DNA of 39,242 bases from a virus (Duplodnaviria; Heunggongvirae; Uroviricota; Caudoviricetes). The translations under genes were made by a program, and so were the position numbers. The stretch is taken from IMG/VR virus record IMGVR_UViG_2734482547_000015; one strand, 5' to 3'. Below are positions 2,056 to 26,127 of this stretch, in pieces. The notes under the pieces are model-generated. The model saw nothing but the letters and a program-made list of their open reading frames with translations, did no database searches and was not told the origin of the DNA. The number at the start of each line of letters is the position of its first letter. Position 1 is the stretch's first letter.

Positions 2056-2130
2056 GATTATTGTCCTCTGATTGGTATATAAAGCGCCCATGAAAATAAA
2101 ACCGACAGGAGAAACTGCCGGTTTGTATTG

Positions 2131-2385
2131 TTACATCATGGTGCTGTCAGTTCCGGGCTGAGCCGGGTCTGGTTGCTCTGGCTGCGCGTCGGTTTTCGGC
2201 TCATTATCAGCATCACTGGCCGCAACTGCTGGCCCAATAAGTTTTGCCAGCACTTCATCAACGTAAGTGTCGATTTGTGCCTCAAAATCCTTGCGGACCT
2301 GCGCTTTCAGCAACTTATTTACTTCACCGGAATACAGTGCCTGTTTTACCAGGTCTTCAGTGACGGTGCCTTTAATTTCTGGCAT
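2131..2385 (-). CDS. Hypothetical small protein (84 aa) with Pro/Glu/Asp/Gln-rich acidic C-terminal tail
   Basis: Near-perfect Shine-Dalgarno AAGGAGGA 6 nt upstream of ATG; C-terminus ...SDADNEPKTDAQPEQPDPAQPGTDSTMM. Confidence 0.65.
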   Translation of the reverse strand: MPEIKGTVTEDLVKQALYSGEVNKLLKAQVRKDFEAQIDTYVDEVLAKLIGPAVAASDADNEPKTDAQPEQPDPAQPGTDSTMM

Positions 2386-2420: not shown

Positions 2421-2603
2421 TCAGGGCTGGGTCGGGTCTTTTGGGAGCGGAGTTACCTGCGCTGTTTTACTGAGTTTTTCAGCTGCTGCGTCCTCAATTT
2501 TGCGGCGAACATAATTTCTGATGGCCTTATAACCACCACTCACCAGATATAACGCACATACTGCCGTGCAGAAATACAATAAAATAAGCTGTAAAAATGT
2601 CAT
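2421..2603 (-). CDS. Hypothetical small membrane protein (61 aa, single N-terminal TM helix)
   Basis: GGGAGGGA Shine-Dalgarno directly upstream of ATG at 2603; hydrophobic segment FLQLILLYFCTAVCALYLV followed by charged tail. Confidence 0.6.
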   Translation of the reverse strand: MTFLQLILLYFCTAVCALYLVSGGYKAIRNYVRRKIEDAAAEKLSKTAQVTPLPKDPTQP

Positions 2604-2747: not shown

Positions 2748-4802
2748 TTACGCGTTATTCACTTCCACCACGATACTGTCAATCAGTACCGGGTAAGTCG
2801 CATTTTTAGTGATATCGGTCACGCGCAACTTGTCTGCCGTAAACGTGCCGACCGGAGACTGCGACAGCATGAATGGTGTCCCGTCCTTACCATCAATGAC
2901 CGGCGTCACCTCAATACTGTTGTTACCGGCAAAACGGAAGCCCAGCGTATGCCATTCGTTATTAAATGCGCCGAATGACCCCAGCTTCGTGTTCTGCGCC
3001 GTGTTTCCTTTGTGATACATCACGTTAAGGTCTGTGGCATCGCTCTGTACGTAGAACGATGCCAGCAGGTTATGACCGGCATTTCCTTCCAGAGTAACCC
3101 CTTGCGGCAGGGCAGAAACCGGCCAGTACAGCGCCAGTGCGTACTGATTAGCCGTAAGCGCGCCATCGAGTTTAAAACGACAACTGACAAGACCACCTTT
3201 ACCCAGCAGGTCCGCACCATTACCAGCATCATGCTCAAGGTACCAGGGGGCTCTTCCTGTTTCCTTGGTCAGTTTCATTGCCTTACCCCCGCTGGCTCCG
3301 GCATCATCCACGATTTGAGCCTTGCCACCTCCGGCAGCCCAACCCTGTGGTGTCAACCGTCCTTCAGACTCAGATGCCCGGTAAGCAAATAGCGTACTCA
3401 TCGTCGTGGTGTCTGCGGGTGGCGTGGACGGTTTTGATGGTGTATCAGGTGACGGCTTCTCATCCGGTGGTGTCACGGTCTGCCCGCGCATCAGTTCAGC
3501 CGTGCGCCCTGCATGGAGCATAATAGCTGAGGCCAGACGGTCTGAAATGACGCCCCTGCGTGCCCATGAGCTGAAATGGCTGTCACGCTGTGTCGAAACA
3601 AAACTGCCCTGGGTTCGGGATGCTGCACCGTAATACCCGACAGCCACAATATCCGGGTCTTCCGCCGGAGCATTCGTTGGCGTGCTCTGTCCATTCTCAT
3701 CCGTCAGGAACGGTACAAAGAAAATTTTCTGTGCTTCCTTGCCTTTGTAGCCACCGTATACTGCCTCATATTTATCGGTGCCAGCGTTTTTCCAGTAATA
3801 CGTGGTATCACCGCAAATCCACGGCACCGTGGTGGCATTTCCACTCACGCACTGCGCAGCAAGCGGAGCCAGGTCAGTTCTGAACTGCTGAACCATGGCC
3901 GTGAATAAACTATTATGCTGCTGGCTTCCTGAGGCAAGGTCTGCCTCTCCCTGCATCCAGACCACAGCCAGAAGTTTGTTTTTCGGGTTTTTCGCCAGCG
4001 CGACTTTGGTGCGGCTTACCAGGTCCTGATACAGAGGTTTACCGGCCCCCCAGCGTGAAGAATCAGCGGAAGCACCGCTGGCCTCACTGAATGAGCCGTC
4101 GGCTCCAGTGGTGAATGCTGACCCGCCACGACAACAGGGCACCAGAAGTATCCCGGCATTCTGTGGGATATAGGGAAGCAGTTTTTTGGCAATATGCAAC
4201 CCCTGACCGACAGTCCCGTACTGGCCTTTTGCCAGATCAGCTTTCGGGTGGTTTATCCCGCTCATATCCTGAACATCATGCAGGCAGTGGTCTGCCGGAA
4301 TGATGTCGTTGTATGTACACGACGTACCGTTGGGCGTTACCGTACTGCGGCGTGCCAGTTGCTTAATGCGTGGGTCCGGGCGGTCAAACGAATCCGGTAA
4401 CGGCAGCCCCTCGCCGTAGGCCATGCCATTTGACTGACCCGCGAGAATGACAACAAAGTAATATTCCGGCTCTGAACTGCTGCCATTCGTGCTACCGGAA
4501 GGCCCGGCGTTATCCGGTGCATTCCAGTCGGAGGGCGTGAGCGTTCCGGCCACGTCAGATGTGATTGGAATGATGCCAGTCACGCCTGAACTGGTGATTT
4601 CTGCACTGGGATTACCGGATACCGGCATTACCCATAATGGCTCTTTCGTGCTGAAGCGGATCACGCAGTCTGCGAAAGTGATCCCCCCTTTATTACCCGA
4701 AGGGCGGAAAGGGCTTTCAATAAATGCCACCGTGCCACCGGCAACCTTGACTGAAAACTCTCCGGGCATGGCGGAGAGCATTTTCCACTTGGAGTCTGAC
4801 AT
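2748..4802 (-). CDS. SASA-family (sialate O-acetylesterase-like, SGNH-type) carbohydrate esterase domain protein, 684 aa, with N-terminal domain and C-terminal beta-sandwich-like region
   Basis: Central motifs YFVVILAGQSNGMAYGEG and VVWMQGEADL typical of the SASA esterase family; resembles prophage NanS-p-type esterases; sits at the position that holds only com-mom in Mu. Confidence 0.8.
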   Translation of the reverse strand: MSDSKWKMLSAMPGEFSVKVAGGTVAFIESPFRPSGNKGGITFADCVIRFSTKEPLWVMPVSGNPSAEITSSGVTGIIPITSDVAGTLTPSDWNAPDNAGPSGSTNGSSSEPEYYFVVILAGQSNGMAYGEGLPLPDSFDRPDPRIKQLARRSTVTPNGTSCTYNDIIPADHCLHDVQDMSGINHPKADLAKGQYGTVGQGLHIAKKLLPYIPQNAGILLVPCCRGGSAFTTGADGSFSEASGASADSSRWGAGKPLYQDLVSRTKVALAKNPKNKLLAVVWMQGEADLASGSQQHNSLFTAMVQQFRTDLAPLAAQCVSGNATTVPWICGDTTYYWKNAGTDKYEAVYGGYKGKEAQKIFFVPFLTDENGQSTPTNAPAEDPDIVAVGYYGAASRTQGSFVSTQRDSHFSSWARRGVISDRLASAIMLHAGRTAELMRGQTVTPPDEKPSPDTPSKPSTPPADTTTMSTLFAYRASESEGRLTPQGWAAGGGKAQIVDDAGASGGKAMKLTKETGRAPWYLEHDAGNGADLLGKGGLVSCRFKLDGALTANQYALALYWPVSALPQGVTLEGNAGHNLLASFYVQSDATDLNVMYHKGNTAQNTKLGSFGAFNNEWHTLGFRFAGNNSIEVTPVIDGKDGTPFMLSQSPVGTFTADKLRVTDITKNATYPVLIDSIVVEVNNA

Positions 4803-4887
4803 CGTCTTTTCTGCCTGTTTCTGAATTAAACAGAGTCAGAATAGCGACCGCTGAAAAATATGTGTTTTGCGGAAATTCAAAAAAGCG

Positions 4888-5460
4888 TCACGGTACTTTT
4901 GGTGACGGAGCTGGTGAGGCAGGAAAATAACGATAAAGAGTGGAAAGGCCAATATCAAATATCAGTGCGATTTGTTTACGGGACTCGCCATTAGCCAGCA
5001 AACGGGCGATTTGCTCCCGCTCTTTCTCTGTCAGTTTCTGAGGTCTGCCGCCATGACGCCCCTGAGCACGGGCAGCAGCAAGACCCGCGCGTGTACGTTC
5101 AATAATGAGTTCCCGCTCCATTTCCGCCAGCGCGCCCATTATATGGAAAAAGAAACGTCCCATGGGAGTGGATGTATCAATATTGTCCGTAATGCTGCGG
5201 AAGTTAACGCCGCGTTGCCGGAGTTCTTCTGTTAAAAGGACAAGGTGCTGCATACTGCGTCCAAGGCGATCCAGTTTCCAGACCAGCAGGGTATCCCCTG
5301 GCCGGAGTCGCTTTAATGCGCGTTTAAGTCCGGGACGCTCCCTTGTCTTACCGCTTATTCTGTCTTCGAAAAACAGCTCACATCCTGCACATTCCAGCGC
5401 ATTTCTTTGTAGCGCCGTATTCTGGTCATTTGTTGACACCCTGATATACCCAATCAGCAT
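4888..5460 (-). CDS. gin: Serine recombinase, Gin/Hin/Cin-family DNA invertase (190 aa)
   Basis: N-terminal catalytic region MLIGYIRVSTNDQ with resolvase-like fold and C-terminal HTH (GLSTLYRYF); immediately adjacent to the invertible segment; AAGGAAA Shine-Dalgarno and TATAAT upstream. Confidence 0.9.
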   Translation of the reverse strand: MLIGYIRVSTNDQNTALQRNALECAGCELFFEDRISGKTRERPGLKRALKRLRPGDTLLVWKLDRLGRSMQHLVLLTEELRQRGVNFRSITDNIDTSTPMGRFFFHIMGALAEMERELIIERTRAGLAAARAQGRHGGRPQKLTEKEREQIARLLANGESRKQIALIFDIGLSTLYRYFPASPAPSPKVP

Positions 5461-5537
5461 ACGATTTCCTTATTATAAAAAGCCGGAATTGTCGCATGAG
5501 GAATAAAACAGAGTTAATCCTGGCTTTCCTGAAAACC

Positions 5538-5607
5538 TCGGTTTACGGGAAACGGTAAACAGGGCGGCGAATGCTCTGCCATCGGACGGCACCGCCGTTG
5601 CCGCGAA
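5538..5607. repeat. Left inverted repeat (~70 bp) of the invertible tail-fibre segment
   Basis: Sequence GGTTTACGGGAAACGGTAAACAGGGCGGCGAATGCTCTGCCATCGGACGGCACCGCCGTTGCCGCGAA is the reverse complement of ~6787-6856 with one mismatch. Confidence 0.85.
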
Positions 5608-5899
5608 TAGACTCGCCACCCCAAGAAATATTAATGGGGTTCCCTTTGACGGGACGCAGGACATAAACATCACTTCTGGTATAACACAGCAGGATGCGGA
5701 TTCCCGATATATCCAGGATATCAGGCTGGGAGCAGAGAACAGGCAGGTAATGTACGGTGGGGCATATTACTCTGCGTACGGTAATGTTATGGCAGGCCTG
5801 CAGATTGACAGTAAAGTTGATGCTTCAAACGATTTTATAGCATTCAGACCCCTGCAAAAATTAGTCGGAGGTACATGGATTACGGTATCTCAGTTATAA
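5546..5899 (+). CDS. Silent alternative tail-fibre C-terminal cassette (S'v-like), in frame through the inverted repeat but without its own start codon
   Basis: Plus-strand translation [45 protein letters not shown]... shares the [24 protein letters not shown] junction with the expressed fibre (6504..7385) and then diverges; ends at TAA ~5897. Confidence 0.7.
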   Translation, partial: RETVNRAANALPSDGTAVAANRLATPRNINGVPFDGTQDINITSGITQQDADSRYIQDIRLGAENRQVMYGGAYYSAYGNVMAGLQIDSKVDASNDFIAFRPLQKLVGGTWITVSQL

Positions 5900-6503: not shown

Positions 6504-7385
6504 TTATATACTTGCAGCCGTCACCCATGCTCCATTTAACAGATACTGCAACGGCCGGTAATACACGCCGCCGACGTTATCTGCCGTATTCTTACCGACA
6601 TCCTGTACTTTAATTCCGGTAAGAACATTGCCGCCCCCCAGATTCAGATCCCAGCTTTCCCATGTTCCGGGCATATGTGCGGTCACCGACCCCAGTCTTA
6701 TGGCGGTTACTGTTCCTGATGAGATAGTGATATCCTGCGTCCCGTCAAAGGGAACACCATTAATTGTGTGGGCATTTGCCAGCCTGTTCGCGGCAACGGC
6801 GGTGCCGTCCGATGGCAGGGCATTCGCCGCCCTGTTTACCGTTTCCCGTAAACCGACGTTATCGATAAAAGCCCCTTTATCCGGAATGTCTGCGCCGTTC
6901 TGCTCCCTGCGCAGGTAACGGTTATCACCTTCGCTTTTGCTGTAAACATCCAGATTATTACGGGCGGTTCCCTTATTCTCCAGGTCGGCGAGATTCTGAT
7001 CCTTCGCCAGGGCATTAACGTCAGCGGGACCAAGACTGTTTTTTGTGGCAAGCGTCCCCAGACCAAGATAACCACGGGCCAGACGCTGGGCCTCCGCACC
7101 GGCATCAGCAATTTCTTTCAGGTTATTTTTCCGGGAAAAAGCATTCGCAGCGATAATGGCTTTAATGGACAGCGTAAGCTGGTTTAACTGCGCCTTATCC
7201 GGCTGAATACTGGCTTCAGCCAGAATATTCAGCAGTTCGGCCTGGAGAATATTCAGCCAGTCCTGACCAATCCAGCTGATACCTTTTTGTCCGTCACCTT
7301 CAGTAAACCAGGTGGTGGTATTACTCTGCGCCGGTGCCAGCGCAGGCATATTCGCCACGCCGGAATTATTATCAACATGAAACAT
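6504..7385 (-). CDS. Tail fibre protein (Mu S-like), constant N-terminal part fused to the currently expressed variable C-terminal cassette
   Basis: 293-aa ORF crossing the right inverted repeat; C-terminal ~95 aa lie inside the invertible segment. Confidence 0.85.
6787..6856. repeat. Right inverted repeat (~70 bp) of the invertible segment, inside the tail-fibre gene
   Basis: Reverse complement of ~5538-5607 with one mismatch. Confidence 0.85.
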
Positions 7386-9018: not shown

Positions 9019-9455
9019 TACTCCCCCTTAAGATCAGCATAAAAAATCATGGGCCTCACTGAACCATCAGGCAGGGTTATGCGCACCGAAAGCGCCAGCC
9101 GCGCGTGTCCCACACGTTCTGCATGACAGACCACGGATGACGCCACGCCATCCTGACTGAGCCAGCCCAGCGCCTCATCCGCGTAAGCACGGGCACGGCT
9201 TATCACCGAGGCCAGCGTTTTTTCCCGGCGGAGAAGCCACAGACGGGAGCCAATGGGACGCGGGCGAAAACTGTCTCCCCACCATCCCCGGCGGTCACGC
9301 GTACCGTCAGGGATTTCATCCGATGCCAGCGCCCGGCGGTCAGTAAACAGCGAAATCAGAACGGCCGTCAGCAGACTGTCATCCGTCAGCAGGTCGGCAC
9401 CGTTCAGTTGCAGCGAACCGCACCCCTGATCCCATACAATTGCAATATCAGCCAT
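9018..9455 (-). CDS. Baseplate protein (Mu gp46-like), start at internal ATG overlapping upstream stop by 8 nt
   Basis: MADIAIVWDQ... ; conserved position after spike gene. Confidence 0.65.
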   Translation of the reverse strand: MADIAIVWDQGCGSLQLNGADLLTDDSLLTAVLISLFTDRRALASDEIPDGTRDRRGWWGDSFRPRPIGSRLWLLRREKTLASVISRARAYADEALGWLSQDGVASSVVCHAERVGHARLALSVRITLPDGSVRPMIFYADLKGE

Positions 9456-10062
9456 TCTCCGGCGCTCCTGTCTTACTGCCTTTGCCGTTATCCTGATGCA
9501 CATGGCCGGAATAGGTGATCCCGGCAATAACGGCATCAGACATCGTGAACAGCCCGTCTGATTTACCTGTACCATCAAGCACGAAATTACCCTTAACATG
9601 CAGGTTTTTATCCACCGTCACATTGCCCGTAAAGGTGGCCTCCGGCGTATCCACCCGCATCCCCTCATCGGCGTAAATCTCCAGCATTTTGCATGTCACA
9701 ATAATGCGACCATCCTTTGTTAACCGTATCCGGTGCCCCTCATGGTGATACACCCCCGTATCTCCGGCTGTGAGTCCGGTCGGGCGGCTGCGCCGGTCTT
9801 CCACCACAAGCACCACAGTCTGATCCCGCTGTCCGCCCAGACAGGCAAAAAAGGTTTCCGCACCCGGCAGGGGAACGCTGATCTGCCCGTACTGCTGGGG
9901 ACGCTCCACATCATCAAAGGTTTCGCCGTCCATGCCGGTGAGCTGCACATTCTGCATTTTCAGTTCGTCATGTGTGCCGGTCAGAACGCCCCGGCCAAAC
10001 AACAGGCGAATACCGCGCGTTACCGGGGCAATCAGGCGGCTGAACACTTCATCATTCATCAA
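9448..10062 (-). CDS. Baseplate assembly/spike protein V-like (Mu gp45-like)
   Basis: 204-aa ORF with beta-rich C-terminus; conserved position. Confidence 0.75.
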   Translation of the reverse strand: MMNDEVFSRLIAPVTRGIRLLFGRGVLTGTHDELKMQNVQLTGMDGETFDDVERPQQYGQISVPLPGAETFFACLGGQRDQTVVLVVEDRRSRPTGLTAGDTGVYHHEGHRIRLTKDGRIIVTCKMLEIYADEGMRVDTPEATFTGNVTVDKNLHVKGNFVLDGTGKSDGLFTMSDAVIAGITYSGHVHQDNGKGSKTGAPENG

Positions 10063-11176
10063 AGCTGATCCCCTGTTTTTTCATCTGCTGGCGAATAAAG
10101 GCATCAACATCGTCACCGGAACCACCCCGGCCCTTACTGTCCGGCTCTGCCGGAACGATAAAGCCGTCACGCGGTGCCAGTACCAGCCGGGTGACTTCCC
10201 CGTTATGTTCATCAAGTAAAAACTCCACCTGACAGACCAGCAGTTCAGTCTGTTCTATACCGAAACGCAGGGCTGAAACACCGGTCAGCAGATTGACATC
10301 CCATAACCGGCCATCATCCCGGAACCAGCCACGCACGGTGGCAGAAAACCGTTCTGAACGGGCAATCGCACGGCGCATTTCACGCAGGGCACGCTGCCGT
10401 GCACCGGTGGTGTCTGTCTGTTGATCGGCGAGGATGATTTTCGGCCGGTAGCGGCCGATCTGCTCATCACTGATGACGCCCACAGGTGCTGCCAGACGGG
10501 CGGCGGATTCGCTGTCTCCCCGTTTGCCACCACCGCGCCCGTGTCCCCGGACACGGTATTCGCTGTATCGTCCTCGCCAGTCCGTGTTGTAATCGGCATC
10601 AAGCAGGTTATCTCCCAGCACCAGTCTGTCCGTCTGCTGGCTTCCTGCCTGGGTGAACACCAGATCGCCGTCAGCATTACTGGTCACCAGCACCCCGCGA
10701 TGCCGGGCAGCACGGGTCAGCGCATCCGCCACGGTTTCTGAGTTTTCCAGCGTAAAAGAGCTGAAGGGGCGTGCAGCCGTGTCGTCGTTAACCTGCCAGC
10801 GCACGGCTATCCCGAAGGGCGCACATAAATCTGCGGCAATCTGTGCCAGCGTCCGGTTGCGCCACTGGCTGCCGGGATGGATGGCGGCACAGTCCACCAG
10901 GTCGCCGGTTTTATCCCGACCGCTGATGCTGATCTGATGACGGGTTGCACTGATCCGCTGACTGACCTGATCCAGCCAGCCACTGATGACCGTCTGCCCG
11001 TTAATTCTGAGCGTCAGGGACTGACCGGTTCGCAGGGCTGAGGGGATGCGCTCACCGGGCAGCATCAGCCCCAGTTCAAACGACCCGGCCAGATGCTCCA
11101 GCGAGCGACGGACGCTGACCGTCAGCCAGCCGGAAAAAATACTGCCACCGATATACAGTTCAATCCTGCTGCTCAC
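10052..11176 (-). CDS. Tail protein P (baseplate hub, late-control-D-like)
   Basis: 374-aa ORF following N gene as in Mu. Confidence 0.8.
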   Translation of the reverse strand: MSSRIELYIGGSIFSGWLTVSVRRSLEHLAGSFELGLMLPGERIPSALRTGQSLTLRINGQTVISGWLDQVSQRISATRHQISISGRDKTGDLVDCAAIHPGSQWRNRTLAQIAADLCAPFGIAVRWQVNDDTAARPFSSFTLENSETVADALTRAARHRGVLVTSNADGDLVFTQAGSQQTDRLVLGDNLLDADYNTDWRGRYSEYRVRGHGRGGGKRGDSESAARLAAPVGVISDEQIGRYRPKIILADQQTDTTGARQRALREMRRAIARSERFSATVRGWFRDDGRLWDVNLLTGVSALRFGIEQTELLVCQVEFLLDEHNGEVTRLVLAPRDGFIVPAEPDSKGRGGSGDDVDAFIRQQMKKQGISFDE

Positions 11177-18714: not shown

Positions 18715-19662
18715 TTACAGATAATCCGCGACAACCAGCTCCAGCTTGCCCTTCATCTCGTTAGAGACGGTGGTGTTACCGTCCGCGAACAGCTCGCGCT
18801 CCAGCAGCTGCACCGCCTGTTTTTCCAGCGAGGTGGGGACAACAATATGGGTGGGTTTGATGCCGAGTTTGCGGCCACCGTCAGCCTTAAAGTCACGCAT
18901 GGCTGACCAGCCGTGCCACAGCGCATCCAGCGTCAGCGGTGACTGCATCATGTAGGCCATCTGCCAGAAGCCGTAGCCCACATTGCGACGGGCGGAAGCA
19001 CCGAACACAAACTCGTTATCAGTAAACGCACGGCCTTCATCGACTTTTGTCTGGGCAACCAGTTCGGCCTTGCGGCGATCCTGATAAATCAGCGGTTTTA
19101 CCGCGCGGGAGCAGTCAAGCAGATACCAGGCCGGGCCGCTGTAATCCGCCTGTGCACCGACAGAGCCGGTTTTTGCCACAAACATATTGCTGACCATCTG
19201 TGCATCACCGGAGCCATCCACTTTGGGGTAAACAGGGTGTTCGGTATCAAAGAAGTTCTGGCCGTCATAGCAGGCCGCATTCAGACCATCACGCAGTGCA
19301 GCAAAGACCAGTTCATCCGGTTGTGCCGCCGCAGCGCGCCCCATCTCCTGGAACAACGGGGAGTAGATGCCAAGATTGTCGTCTTCAAAGTCATCGCGGC
19401 TAATGGCAACGGTGCCTTCAAAGGTTTTGTTCACGATGGCGTAGCCATAGGCTTTCATCTTCTCGATGACGCGGGAGCCGATCCACTCACGGAACTGCGG
19501 GAACTGCCCCAGCCAGCCGTAGGTGTTGGATTTCGACGTGGACGGTACGGTCATCGCAATTTTCTGGTACTGAGACGGAGCCATGGACATCCCGGCCTGA
19601 AAATCAGAACGGTAGCCCGTCATCAGGGCGGTGATCATCGCCGGTGTGATCGGGGTAGGCAT
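18715..19662 (-). CDS. Major head subunit (Mu T-like), 315 aa
   Basis: Size, composition and position after protease/scaffold gene; start overlaps I stop (TAATG). Confidence 0.9.
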   Translation of the reverse strand: MPTPITPAMITALMTGYRSDFQAGMSMAPSQYQKIAMTVPSTSKSNTYGWLGQFPQFREWIGSRVIEKMKAYGYAIVNKTFEGTVAISRDDFEDDNLGIYSPLFQEMGRAAAAQPDELVFAALRDGLNAACYDGQNFFDTEHPVYPKVDGSGDAQMVSNMFVAKTGSVGAQADYSGPAWYLLDCSRAVKPLIYQDRRKAELVAQTKVDEGRAFTDNEFVFGASARRNVGYGFWQMAYMMQSPLTLDALWHGWSAMRDFKADGGRKLGIKPTHIVVPTSLEKQAVQLLERELFADGNTTVSNEMKGKLELVVADYL

Positions 19663-20786: not shown

Positions 20787-20963
20787 TCCGGCAGCATAAG
20801 CCGGTGTTTTTCGGGGCCGGTTTTGCGGGACTTCAGAAAGTGCTGACAGGGGAAAAATGAGAAAGGCGCTTCACGCAGATTTTAAAGCCCGTTAAATACA
20901 GGTTAGAAAATCACGACACGCGCCTGAAGAGGGTAAGGCAATGCGTTTGTATACCTTAAACCA
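20787..20963 (-). promoter_or_regulatory. Intergenic region between G and I; candidate late promoter (Mu P_I position)
   Basis: 177-bp gap in an otherwise tightly packed operon; contains TTTTTCCCC-type motif also seen upstream of lys. Confidence 0.3.
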
Positions 20964-24472: not shown

Positions 24473-26127
24473 CCCCGATCAAATTCATGATATGCCTCAT
24501 CGTCATCACGATAACCGCCCTCCATTGCCCGCGACCGCTCCGGCAGCGCCTGACAGGCTGATTCATCCAGGATGAAACCCTCCATGTATGACGCCCGGTT
24601 TGCCATACAGAGTGCCACGGCAAAATCACCATGGCGGCGGGCGTTCGCAGCCGTTGCGTTCTGGTCCTTCGTGCGCCCCTTGTCGATTTGCGGGATACCA
24701 TTCACCACCTTCACATGGCGCAAATCATCAAGCGTGGTCTGATGGCGGGCGACGAGGATATTCTGATCTTCAAACTCGGCTTTCAGTTTTGGCATCCACT
24801 CGCCGTACCACTTCGGCGACAACATCACGCAGTCGATGATGTCCGGGCCAAAGGCCAGCAGTGCGGCCTCTGCCAGATAGCCGCCGTTACCGGTGGCGTC
24901 GAACGCCGCACCGACCAGCGCCGGAACGCGGGTCAGGATGTACATCATCACCTGTTCCTGCTGGGCATACGGCAGGTTGCGCAGCTCCACGCGAAACACC
25001 TCGCGCTTTGCCAGGAGTTCGGTGATTTCCAGCAGCACAAAGCAGGACAGGTCACCGGTGCGGGCAAAGTCTTCCCCGAAGCTGAAGCGGGAACGGGGAT
25101 TTAATTTCTCTGTAAGCGGTTTTAAATGTTCTTCACACCAGGTTAAAACTTCCGATTCACGCAGCCATGCGGCACGGCTGATGAAGTCGTCCGGGGCTTC
25201 AAACGTCAGAATCGGGATGTCACGAATCATCGCCATTTCAATAAGCGCGTGAGGAATATAGGCACCGCCGGATTTTTTCGGGATACAGCCGTATTCCTCG
25301 TCGGCATCCTCACGGGTCGGGGCGTTTTTGTAGAGATCATCACGCCATTTCTGCTCGCTTTCCGGTGACCATTCCTGATCGGTGACGTAACAGATACGAC
25401 GGTACAGCCCGTCCGCAATGGCATCATCCAGGGTTATGCGGTGGACGCTGTAATCCTTGCGCCCCTCGCGGGCTTCCTGAATGTACTGATTAAACAGATT
25501 ATCGACGCCGTTATGCGTGGAAATAATGCGCACGCGTGCGCCCCACATGGTAAGCGCCATTGCCGCCTTGAGAAGCTCATCCAGTGACTCGTGGAACGCG
25601 GCTTCATCAATCACCACATCCCCCTGAAGACCGCGCAGGTTTGACGGACGGGAAGACAATGCCTGAATTTTGAATCCACTGTTCGGAAAGCGGATCATGT
25701 AGGTCAGAATTTCTTCTTTTTTATCCCGATCCCAGAATGTCTGCTCATACACATCAGCATCTGCCAGCTGGTTAAAGGCACGGGAGAACAGCGCGCAGGC
25801 AGAAATATATTCCAGCGCCATCTCCTGTTTTGACCCCACATAAAACACATTACGGCCACCACGACGCTTAGGCTTTGCGGCGGTAATGACGTTACGCCCG
25901 GCTTCCGCCCAGGTAAGCCCGGTGCGTCGGGATTTCTCCGCGATGCAGACCTGACTTTCATCTGCAAACCAGCGGGCCTGATAATCCAGAAACACCGGCA
26001 TATCACCGGGCAAATCAAGGCTGTCCGGCACATCCACGCCCAGCAGGGCTTTTTCACCGGACAGATCAATTTTGCGGGGAGGTGTCATTTGTATCAGTGA
26101 AGGAGACTTTTCTTTGGCTTTGTTCAT
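24463..26127 (-). CDS. Terminase large subunit (554 aa)
   Basis: Size and position before portal; start overlaps upstream stop (TGATG). Confidence 0.85.
   Translation of the reverse strand: MNKAKEKSPSLIQMTPPRKIDLSGEKALLGVDVPDSLDLPGDMPVFLDYQARWFADESQVCIAEKSRRTGLTWAEAGRNVITAAKPKRRGGRNVFYVGSKQEMALEYISACALFSRAFNQLADADVYEQTFWDRDKKEEILTYMIRFPNSGFKIQALSSRPSNLRGLQGDVVIDEAAFHESLDELLKAAMALTMWGARVRIISTHNGVDNLFNQYIQEAREGRKDYSVHRITLDDAIADGLYRRICYVTDQEWSPESEQKWRDDLYKNAPTREDADEEYGCIPKKSGGAYIPHALIEMAMIRDIPILTFEAPDDFISRAAWLRESEVLTWCEEHLKPLTEKLNPRSRFSFGEDFARTGDLSCFVLLEITELLAKREVFRVELRNLPYAQQEQVMMYILTRVPALVGAAFDATGNGGYLAEAALLAFGPDIIDCVMLSPKWYGEWMPKLKAEFEDQNILVARHQTTLDDLRHVKVVNGIPQIDKGRTKDQNATAANARRHGDFAVALCMANRASYMEGFILDESACQALPERSRAMEGGYRDDDEAYHEFDRGCW

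Follow-up and report, generated by a model that had tools for sequence, protein, structure and literature searches.

What does a gene for a large esterase do in the interval between gin and mom of a Mu-like prophage? The question is raised by IMG/VR virus record IMGVR_UViG_2734482547_000015, whose whole stretch of 39,242 nucleotides is referred to here as the window, and by an open reading frame (ORF) on its minus strand at 2748..4802 (stop codon included), which starts with ATG and encodes a putative NanS-p-type sialate O-acetylesterase of 684 residues. This ORF, with its GQSN and QGEAD motifs, was found just as a preliminary description of the window had given it. That description also held that the gene is not part of the Mu core, and this stands: canonical Mu has just 94 bp between gin and com, containing the Pmom promoter, where the window has approximately 3.6 kb. 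We consider it likely that the ORF encodes a sialate 9-O-acetylesterase of the NanS-p family that sits in a shared three-gene module on a Mu-like carrier, is expressed late, is released at lysis, and bears a phage-type-specific N-terminus. The enzyme itself appears to be an ordinary NanS-p and is in that respect known; what the sequence comparisons suggest to be new is the phage-type domain swap and the apparent adoption of a late promoter belonging to the phage itself.

The esterase ORF is intact in the ORF list of the window, and the family signal extends over most of its length. Pfam detects SASA (PF03629) at aa 117-312 (E 1.5e-13, 51.3 bits against a curated cutoff of 24.8) and DUF6645 at aa 533-650 (E 7e-68), while PHROG 143 spans aa 71-684 (E 1.7e-296). 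By tblastn the protein matches 349 phage records, most of them Stx (Shiga toxin)-converting phages, in which the usual annotation is 9-O-acetyl-N-acetylneuraminic acid deacetylase. A chance origin of the motifs or the ORF is excluded because of these Pfam, PHROG 143 and tblastn matches. The RefSeq label for the protein is merely 'DUF6645 domain-containing protein', and an NCBIfam search returned no match for the esterase or its neighbours. In a sequence search of the PDB the esterase splits into two solved homologues. Query aa 110-428 match 3PT5, the chromosomal NanS/YjhS of E. coli (E 1.8e-117), and the catalytic domain is approximately 65% identical to this sialate-specific enzyme; query aa 469-683 match 6YP6, which is the NanS-p C-terminal domain from Stx phage phi24B (E 7e-98). 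By homology, the 684-residue protein is a member of the NanS-p group of sialate 9-O-acetylesterases.

Five segments can be delimited along the protein, all encoded on the minus strand. An N-terminal domain (aa 1-82, 4557..4802), all-beta, without family assignment and found in Mu-like prophages only, is followed by linker 1 (aa 83-111, 4470..4556), which is rich in S, G, T and D and predicted to be disordered. The catalytic SGNH/SASA domain (aa 112-434, 3501..4469), defined by the 3PT5 match, leads through a P/T-rich linker 2 (aa 435-468, 3399..3500) to a C-terminal lectin-like jelly-roll domain (DUF6645; aa 469-684, 2751..3398), assigned from 6YP6 and Pfam. The flanking N-terminal domain and C-terminal beta-sandwich foreseen in the preliminary description are thus both present, the latter being the lectin-like jelly-roll of 6YP6.

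Catalytic-residue positions and the definitions of the SASA blocks were taken from two reviews (PMC9487903, PMC10792757). In the SASA/CE6-type, block I supplies the Ser nucleophile and a neighbouring Gln that makes an inverted oxyanion hole (PMC9487903); the block table of 3PT5 was used for comparison (PMC10792757). Four of four SGNH/SASA blocks are kept in the window protein, and the profile match lies above the curated threshold. Block I, GQSN at aa 122-125 (GQSNG at 122-126), aligns with 17-GQSNA-21 of 3PT5 and contains the nucleophile Ser124 (nucleotides 4431-4433), adjoined by Gln123 of the oxyanion hole. Block II, RGGSAF at aa 225-230, aligns with 120-RGGSAF-125, and block III, MQGEAD at aa 283-288 (QGEAD at 284-288), with 178-MQGEFD-183. 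Block V reads R406-D-S-H409-F-S, without an Asp, and aligns with R-x-SHFS-303; His409 is encoded by nucleotides 3576-3578. Blocks II and V are invariant across the three aligned esterases. NanS/YjhS and the window protein share homology over the full length of the catalytic domain, identical block I, III and V residues and the Asp-less Ser-His arrangement of the SASA subgroup, but NanS is a single-domain protein of approximately 330 residues belonging to the nan regulon, whereas the window protein is phage-borne and has added N- and C-terminal domains. The predicted active site is a Ser124-His409 dyad, with the Gln123 oxyanion hole arranged by a Q284-G-E286 network. With SASA scoring above its cutoff and both Ser124 and His409 in place, the earlier assignment to the SASA-type SGNH esterases is upheld.

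NanS-p enzymes have been found experimentally to deacetylate 5-N-acetyl-9-O-acetylneuraminic acid (Neu5,9Ac2) and mucin O-glycans (PMC8065619, PMC8319020), and nanS-p genes sustain growth of enterohaemorrhagic E. coli (EHEC) on Neu5,9Ac2 (PMC8065619). From these characterised homologues, which are 63-70% identical (PMC8065619, PMC8319020), we infer esterase activity on Neu5,9Ac2 and on the O-acetyl sialic acids of mucin. Of the two roles proposed in the preliminary description, action on mucosal glycans fits the published experiments (PMC8065619, PMC8319020), and a receptor-modifying role at the tail is unsupported. Carbohydrate binding has been proposed for the lectin-like jelly-roll of 6YP6 (PMC8065619). 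At four IMG/VR loci (L032, L034, L036 and L037) the C-terminal domain is just 40-46% identical to that of the window, which suggests that these Mu-borne alleles have another type of C-terminal (lectin) domain, in parallel with the C-terminal variants reported for lambdoid NanS-p.

The window approximates a whole Mu-like prophage, with Pfam matches to MuA, MuB, the Mu portal, MuF, gpI, the gpT major head protein (18715-19662), sheath, tape measure, Mor/C, gin, com and mom. Upstream of the esterase lies a gin-type serine invertase (4888..5460, minus; Resolvase E 1.6e-51 plus HTH_7), and downstream are com (1079-1279, minus; Zn_ribbon_Com E 2e-12) and mom (388-1125, minus; Pfam Mom E 2.4e-77). 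Within the gin-mom region only gin (70%) and mom (72%) have DNA homology to Mu. The minus strand of the gap carries the esterase, DUF1378, DUF826, a terminator-like hairpin and a variable block of small ORFs. The DUF1378 gene (2421..2603, minus; Pfam E 1e-31) begins at an ATG at 2603, the mechanically called ORF starting at a TTG at 2615, and encodes a small single-pass membrane protein of 60 residues (Kyte-Doolittle value of 2.27 in a 19-residue window at aa 3-21); it matches 309 phage records. DUF826 (2131..2385, minus; Pfam E 6e-16) is a small acidic protein of 84 residues. In Stx phages the gene order is stx2AB, nanS-p, DUF1378, DUF826 and holin, and the window keeps esterase-DUF1378-DUF826. 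Judged by gene content and order, the insert is a lambdoid-type three-gene module and not a lone gene. The preliminary description, which had the gene inserted between gin and mom, was right about the position but not about a solitary insertion, the esterase being the first gene of a module of approximately 3.6 kb. It also recognised neither the NanS-p family, which is named and characterised, nor the lambdoid character of the module.

Similarities to the lambdoid NanS-p systems include the SASA domain (approximately 70% identity) and the DUF6645 C-terminal domain (approximately 76%), the overall plan of N-terminal domain, linker, esterase, linker and C-terminal domain, the DUF1378 and DUF826 partners, carriage on a prophage, and apparently late expression. 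In contrast to those systems, DUF1737 is replaced by an unrelated six-stranded domain of approximately 80 residues, the carrier is a Mu-like transposable myovirus, and the module occupies the gin-com interval instead of the one between Q/stx and holin S. Identity of the partner genes to their lambdoid counterparts is just 53% (DUF1378, compared with the gene after nanS-p in Stx phages) and 34% (DUF826), and a presumed C-type activator box stands here in place of Q antitermination from pR'. No earlier description of a Mu-borne NanS-p form or of an alternative N-terminal domain was found in the searchable literature, a coverage that leaves most subscription journals outside.

The N-terminus is where the window protein departs from this family. 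DUF1737 (PF08410) is absent: aa 1-115 have no Pfam match even at E<=10, and hhalign of the N-terminal profile against the DUF1737 profile gives a probability of 0.07%, while DUF1737 scored at E 1.6e-11 by Pfam in a lambdoid control protein. The reading of this segment as a diverged DUF1737 was rejected on the Pfam and hhalign results. An AlphaFold2 (AF2) model shows a core at aa 7-80 with predicted local distance difference test (pLDDT) values of 70-86 and an all-beta fold of six strands, unlike DUF1737, which comprises one helix and three strands; the linker at aa 83-108 has a pLDDT of <50. Homology to lambdoid NanS-p starts at the end of linker 1 (SSSEPEYYF; '...SSEPEYYF..AGQSN'). Among the homologues retrieved with aa 1-200, the N-terminus is covered by Mu-borne forms only, and all others listed carry PF08410 and align from approximately aa 95 onward. 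When 1.84 billion representative proteins were searched exhaustively with phmmer, self fragments and one Salmonella Mu-like homologue came up, with one further match that looks spurious. Only fragments of the same protein came from a word-indexed homologue search with the N-terminal 100 residues; a profile version of the search reached nothing past fusions in E. coli, Shigella and Salmonella, and a scan of genome contigs with the N-terminal profile gave zero confirmed loci. This esterase is thus the only protein on which the domain has been seen, and its carriers are in every case Mu-like prophages of E. coli, Shigella or Salmonella. As indicated by profile and model comparison, the N-terminal approximately 80 residues are unrelated to the DUF1737 capsid anchor.

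The same arrangement occurs at >=99% identity in approximately 24 complete E. coli genomes in RefSeq. Of 5,426 complete E. coli genomes, 32 have the N-terminal coding segment, at differing chromosomal sites and in up to three copies, so that approximately 0.6% of complete E. coli genomes carry a sialate esterase gene that is unrecognised in RefSeq. A further 34 contigs in IMG/VR carry the segment and fall into two allele groups, with 97-100% and approximately 60% N-terminal identity; in every case the gene order around it reads gp48, fibre, tfa, (gin), esterase, DUF1378, DUF826, ..., com and mom. A Mu-like prophage of Salmonella enterica has a third and distant version (30% identity) downstream of its invertase. 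In this relative (L003, 9426-9910) two small ORFs stand between the invertase and the esterase, which encode a probable membrane protein of 58 residues, with a terminator-like hairpin after it, and an 87-residue protein with a weak match to an Xre-like helix-turn-helix; the esterase itself is cut off by the end of the contig.

Comparison with a Mu-like phage of O157 reveals the mosaic nature of the gene. The two Mu-like genomes are 89-93% identical in DNA genome-wide, but only 67-78% at approximately 1.7-6.7 kb of the window. At the protein level the window and O157 Mu-borne forms share 58% (N-terminal), 69% (catalytic) and 74% (C-terminal) identity. The corresponding values are 15%, 70% and 76% for the window against the lambdoid protein, and 18%, 81% and 95% for the O157 Mu-borne against the lambdoid protein. 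In sliding DNA windows the O157 Mu-borne and lambdoid alleles are 84-98% identical over the C-terminal half, while the O157 DUF1378 and DUF826 genes again side with the Mu lineage, at 78-88% identity to the window as against 36-58% to the lambdoid phage. The identity over the C-terminal half therefore indicates that the esterase body has been exchanged between Mu-borne and lambdoid copies by recombination. Because the N-terminus never crosses lineages while the esterase body recombines, the N-terminal domain most likely serves a role specific to the phage type. Gene conversion thus appears to join Mu-borne and lambdoid alleles within one genome, which bears on the typing of nanS-p alleles in E. 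coli strains that make Shiga toxin (STEC). The O157 Mu-like phage lies inside the Stx2c phage LC727881, and a 4-bp target duplication is annotated for it. At 9420-10472 of this locus (L001), after com, the place that Mom takes in the window is filled by a C-5 cytosine DNA methylase (PF00145, E 2e-42), as if one DNA-modification enzyme under the control of com had been exchanged for another.

How such a module might be expressed is suggested by an element directly after gin, at the place of Pmom in Mu. A putative late-activator (C-type) box, TGAATTTCCGCAAAA, of 15 nt lies at 4865..4879 on the minus strand, 9 nt past the gin stop codon, and a -10-like hexamer, TATTCT, follows 21 nt beyond it (4838..4843, minus). 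The pattern TGAWNTYCCGCAAAW has exactly three zero-mismatch matches in the 39 kb, all on the minus (transcribed) strand: at the esterase, at lys (29008-29022, just after the Mor/C-family gene at 29020-29442, the Plys position) and at I (20821-20835, the PI position). In shuffled sequences 0.15 matches are expected, even with one mismatch allowed. Each box is followed by a TAnnnT hexamer, TACGCT after 22 nt at lys, TATGCT after 22 nt at I and TATTCT after 21 nt at the esterase. The O157 relative has the same three sites, and at its esterase the box matches at 13 of 15 positions and is followed after 21 nt by TATGAT, with a spacer of unrelated sequence. Box and -10 hexamer are kept across allele groups with differing spacers, and the box is also kept in loci without gin, of which there are several among the relatives. 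The late promoters of Mu (Plys, PI, PP and Pmom) are likewise built of an activator box and a -10 without a -35, but the box here reads TGAWnTYCCGCAAAW whereas that of Mu is CCATAAcCCC, and Mu's own C-box is not present upstream of the esterase. In a further departure from the mom operon of Mu, the element precedes a foreign three-gene module, with com-mom 3.6 kb farther on behind terminator-like hairpins. A generic sigma-70 scan of the gin-esterase interval gave nothing convincing. From a promoter-like element common to the lys and I late operons of this phage, we infer that a late, C-type-activated promoter drives esterase-DUF1378-DUF826. The transcription unit of the module probably ends at an intrinsic-terminator-like hairpin with a T-run (2099..2124, minus), 7 nt past the DUF826 stop.

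Two other elements were noted in this connection. A one-mismatch copy of the box, TGGTATCCCGCAAAT, lies at 24686-24700 on the minus strand inside the gene for the terminase large subunit, with a conserved counterpart in the O157 relative; this copy may represent an internal promoter or be due to chance. Directly past the esterase stop codon, at approximately 2700-2745, there is a 9-bp GC-rich hairpin (GCCGCCGGT...ACCGGCGGC), whose T-run is on the plus strand only, so that it is oriented to halt antisense transcription into the esterase.

Taken together, a C-type activator would switch on late lytic transcription of the esterase, DUF1378 and DUF826 up to the hairpin. Neither a signal peptide nor a transmembrane segment was found in the esterase; without a signal peptide the protein would therefore exit the cell at lysis, as is assumed for lambdoid NanS-p. 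The freed enzyme would take O-acetyl groups off Neu5,9Ac2 and off the sialic acids of O-acetylated mucin glycans, and the resulting N-acetylneuraminic acid could then be freed by sialidases and catabolised by E. coli. Several points limit the case for late expression from this element: the motif was derived by eye from the same three regions that TGAWNTYCCGCAAAW covers; a search of the correct strand that allowed <=2 mismatches gave no late box where PP would be expected, within the N gene, or at the Pmom site upstream of com; and the esterase follows gin at a distance of 85 bp in the same orientation, with no hairpin of the terminator type found between them. This last circumstance favours classical lysogenic conversion, as put forward in the preliminary description, in which the enzyme would be made constitutively, for instance if transcription begun at the gin promoter reads through, and the lysogen would gain access to O-acetylated sialic acids, a benefit in keeping with the growth that nanS-p supports in EHEC on Neu5,9Ac2 (PMC8065619). 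We regard it as unlikely. A cytoplasmic enzyme lacking a signal peptide would require lysis or import of the substrate, the late-promoter-like box stands directly upstream of the gene and is kept where gin is missing, and lambdoid nanS-p genes are induced along with phage late genes (PMC10462455). Because the late-promoter-like box precedes the gene at the spot of the Mu mom promoter, expression during lytic growth is favoured over lysogenic conversion. The same location deprives adjacency to the tail-fibre switch, to which the preliminary description had attached functional weight, of its value as a clue, the spot being that of Mu's mom late promoter. That adjacency, together with a weak match to the PHROG 'tail protein' phrog_25867 (E 1.2e-6) limited to the SGNH core at aa 211-312, is what speaks for a tail-associated esterase that would modify receptors at adsorption by acting on O-acetyl groups of O-antigen or capsule, as in phage G7C or the Vi phages. 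The G7C gp63.1 tailspike and the Vi-phage acetyl esterases are also phage SGNH-fold O-acetylesterases acting on surface carbohydrates (PMC8065619), but they are tailspikes with tail-adaptor domains and bacterial polysaccharide targets, and no homology to tail-fibre or tailspike adaptor domains was found here in Pfam or PHROG. The catalytic domain is closest to a sialate-specific NanS, as given above, and lambdoid phages keep the same enzyme body far from their tail genes. The gene also lies past gin and outside the invertible segment, and a tail-fibre component was rejected on the latter ground. A receptor-modifying tail enzyme is accordingly very improbable. The invertible segment, of approximately 1.3 kb, is bounded by 86-nt inverted repeats (5531-5616 / 6778-6863, 93% complementary) and holds the fibre C-terminus and tfa, the latter in both orientations among related loci.

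What the N-terminal domain would contribute to a late-expressed, lysis-released enzyme is a separate matter. The phi24B homologue of NanS-p, gp84, decorates the capsid: its N-terminal DUF1737 binds hexon centres as a hexamer, and the protein later undergoes proteolytic self-processing at its linkers (bioRxiv 10.64898/2026.04.10.717836). Attachment to the Mu-type virion is, as a hypothesis, the leading candidate role for the replacement domain and a plausible one; it is drawn by analogy with gp84 only, whose DUF1737 this protein lacks. The N-terminal domain would then tether the enzyme to the particle as a capsid or tail anchor, so that a linker-borne virion esterase acts on sialoglycans of nearby mucus, an extension of the late-release reading that we hold as possible but tentative. 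It draws on the fact that precisely the domain which binds the capsid in gp84 (bioRxiv 10.64898/2026.04.10.717836) is the one exchanged. Further points in its favour are that the junction falls in the linker, that the linker is predicted to be disordered and tether-like, that the replacement is confined to Mu-like phages in three genera, and that the N-terminus tracks phage type while the remaining gene recombines with lambdoid alleles; a promoter resembling late promoters would also match the timing of structural genes. Against it, structure comparison of the N-terminal domain showed no resemblance to any known decoration or anchoring protein, and the E. coli allele groups have 58% N-terminal identity against 89-93% DNA identity for the rest of the genome, head genes included; a tight capsid binder would be expected to show closer co-conservation. 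To our knowledge no decoration protein has been reported for Mu virions, which also counts against it. Linkers 1 and 2 show no obvious copies of the SSP-type motifs that gp84 is reported to have in its linkers. In its general form the idea is that these esterases are tethered virion decorations, with DUF1737 serving the T=9 podovirus capsids of lambdoid phages and the new beta domain serving Mu-type myoviruses, and we put it forward with reservation; in the same tentative spirit we suggest that recombination would let the catalytic and lectin body pass freely from one phage type to another. Alternatively, the enzyme may have in its N-terminal domain a second module for binding carbohydrate or targeting the substrate, unconnected with the virion. 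The domain is a small all-beta barrel, and the folds nearest to it are cupin and jelly-roll domains, several of them from sugar-handling proteins, and the family already employs a lectin-like C-terminal domain (6YP6). This reading seems to us improbable, somewhat more so than the anchor.

NanS-p esterases have been regarded as fitness and virulence accessories of Stx phages, and the Mu-borne form suggests that the esterase module is selected in phages of differing lifestyles and beyond the neighbourhood of stx. Since the N-terminal domain is probably the phage-type-specific part, the idea of a swappable virion anchor is directly testable. If true, this would give Mu-like virions their first decoration protein, and virion display of a host-glycan-modifying enzyme would be selected across unrelated phage lineages.

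Several features of the surrounding DNA may be mentioned. The variable block between DUF826 and com (1280-2130) contains orf78 on the minus strand (1855-2091) and, on the plus strand, the overlapping pair orf99 (1394-1693) and orf68 (1686-1892). These three are present in some related loci and missing or truncated in others, and none has a match in Pfam, PHROG or PADLOC. A defence-system reading was rejected, since neither the esterase nor its partners nor any small accessory ORF had a meaningful PADLOC match. A strong hairpin terminator lies on the minus strand at 1551-1580. Approximately 45 nt upstream of the com start, at 1323-1347, the palindrome AATCGATCG-N7-CGATCGATT includes two GATC (Dam) sites and recalls the Dam/OxyR control of Pmom in Mu. 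The right end of the prophage is at approximately 260, and repeated TTTGATAC(C) motifs at 275-345 resemble transposase binding sites. Beyond it the host flank is a fragment of a glycosyl-hydrolase-1 (6-phospho-beta-glucosidase) gene; in NCCP15648 the same prophage interrupts a fimbrial usher gene.

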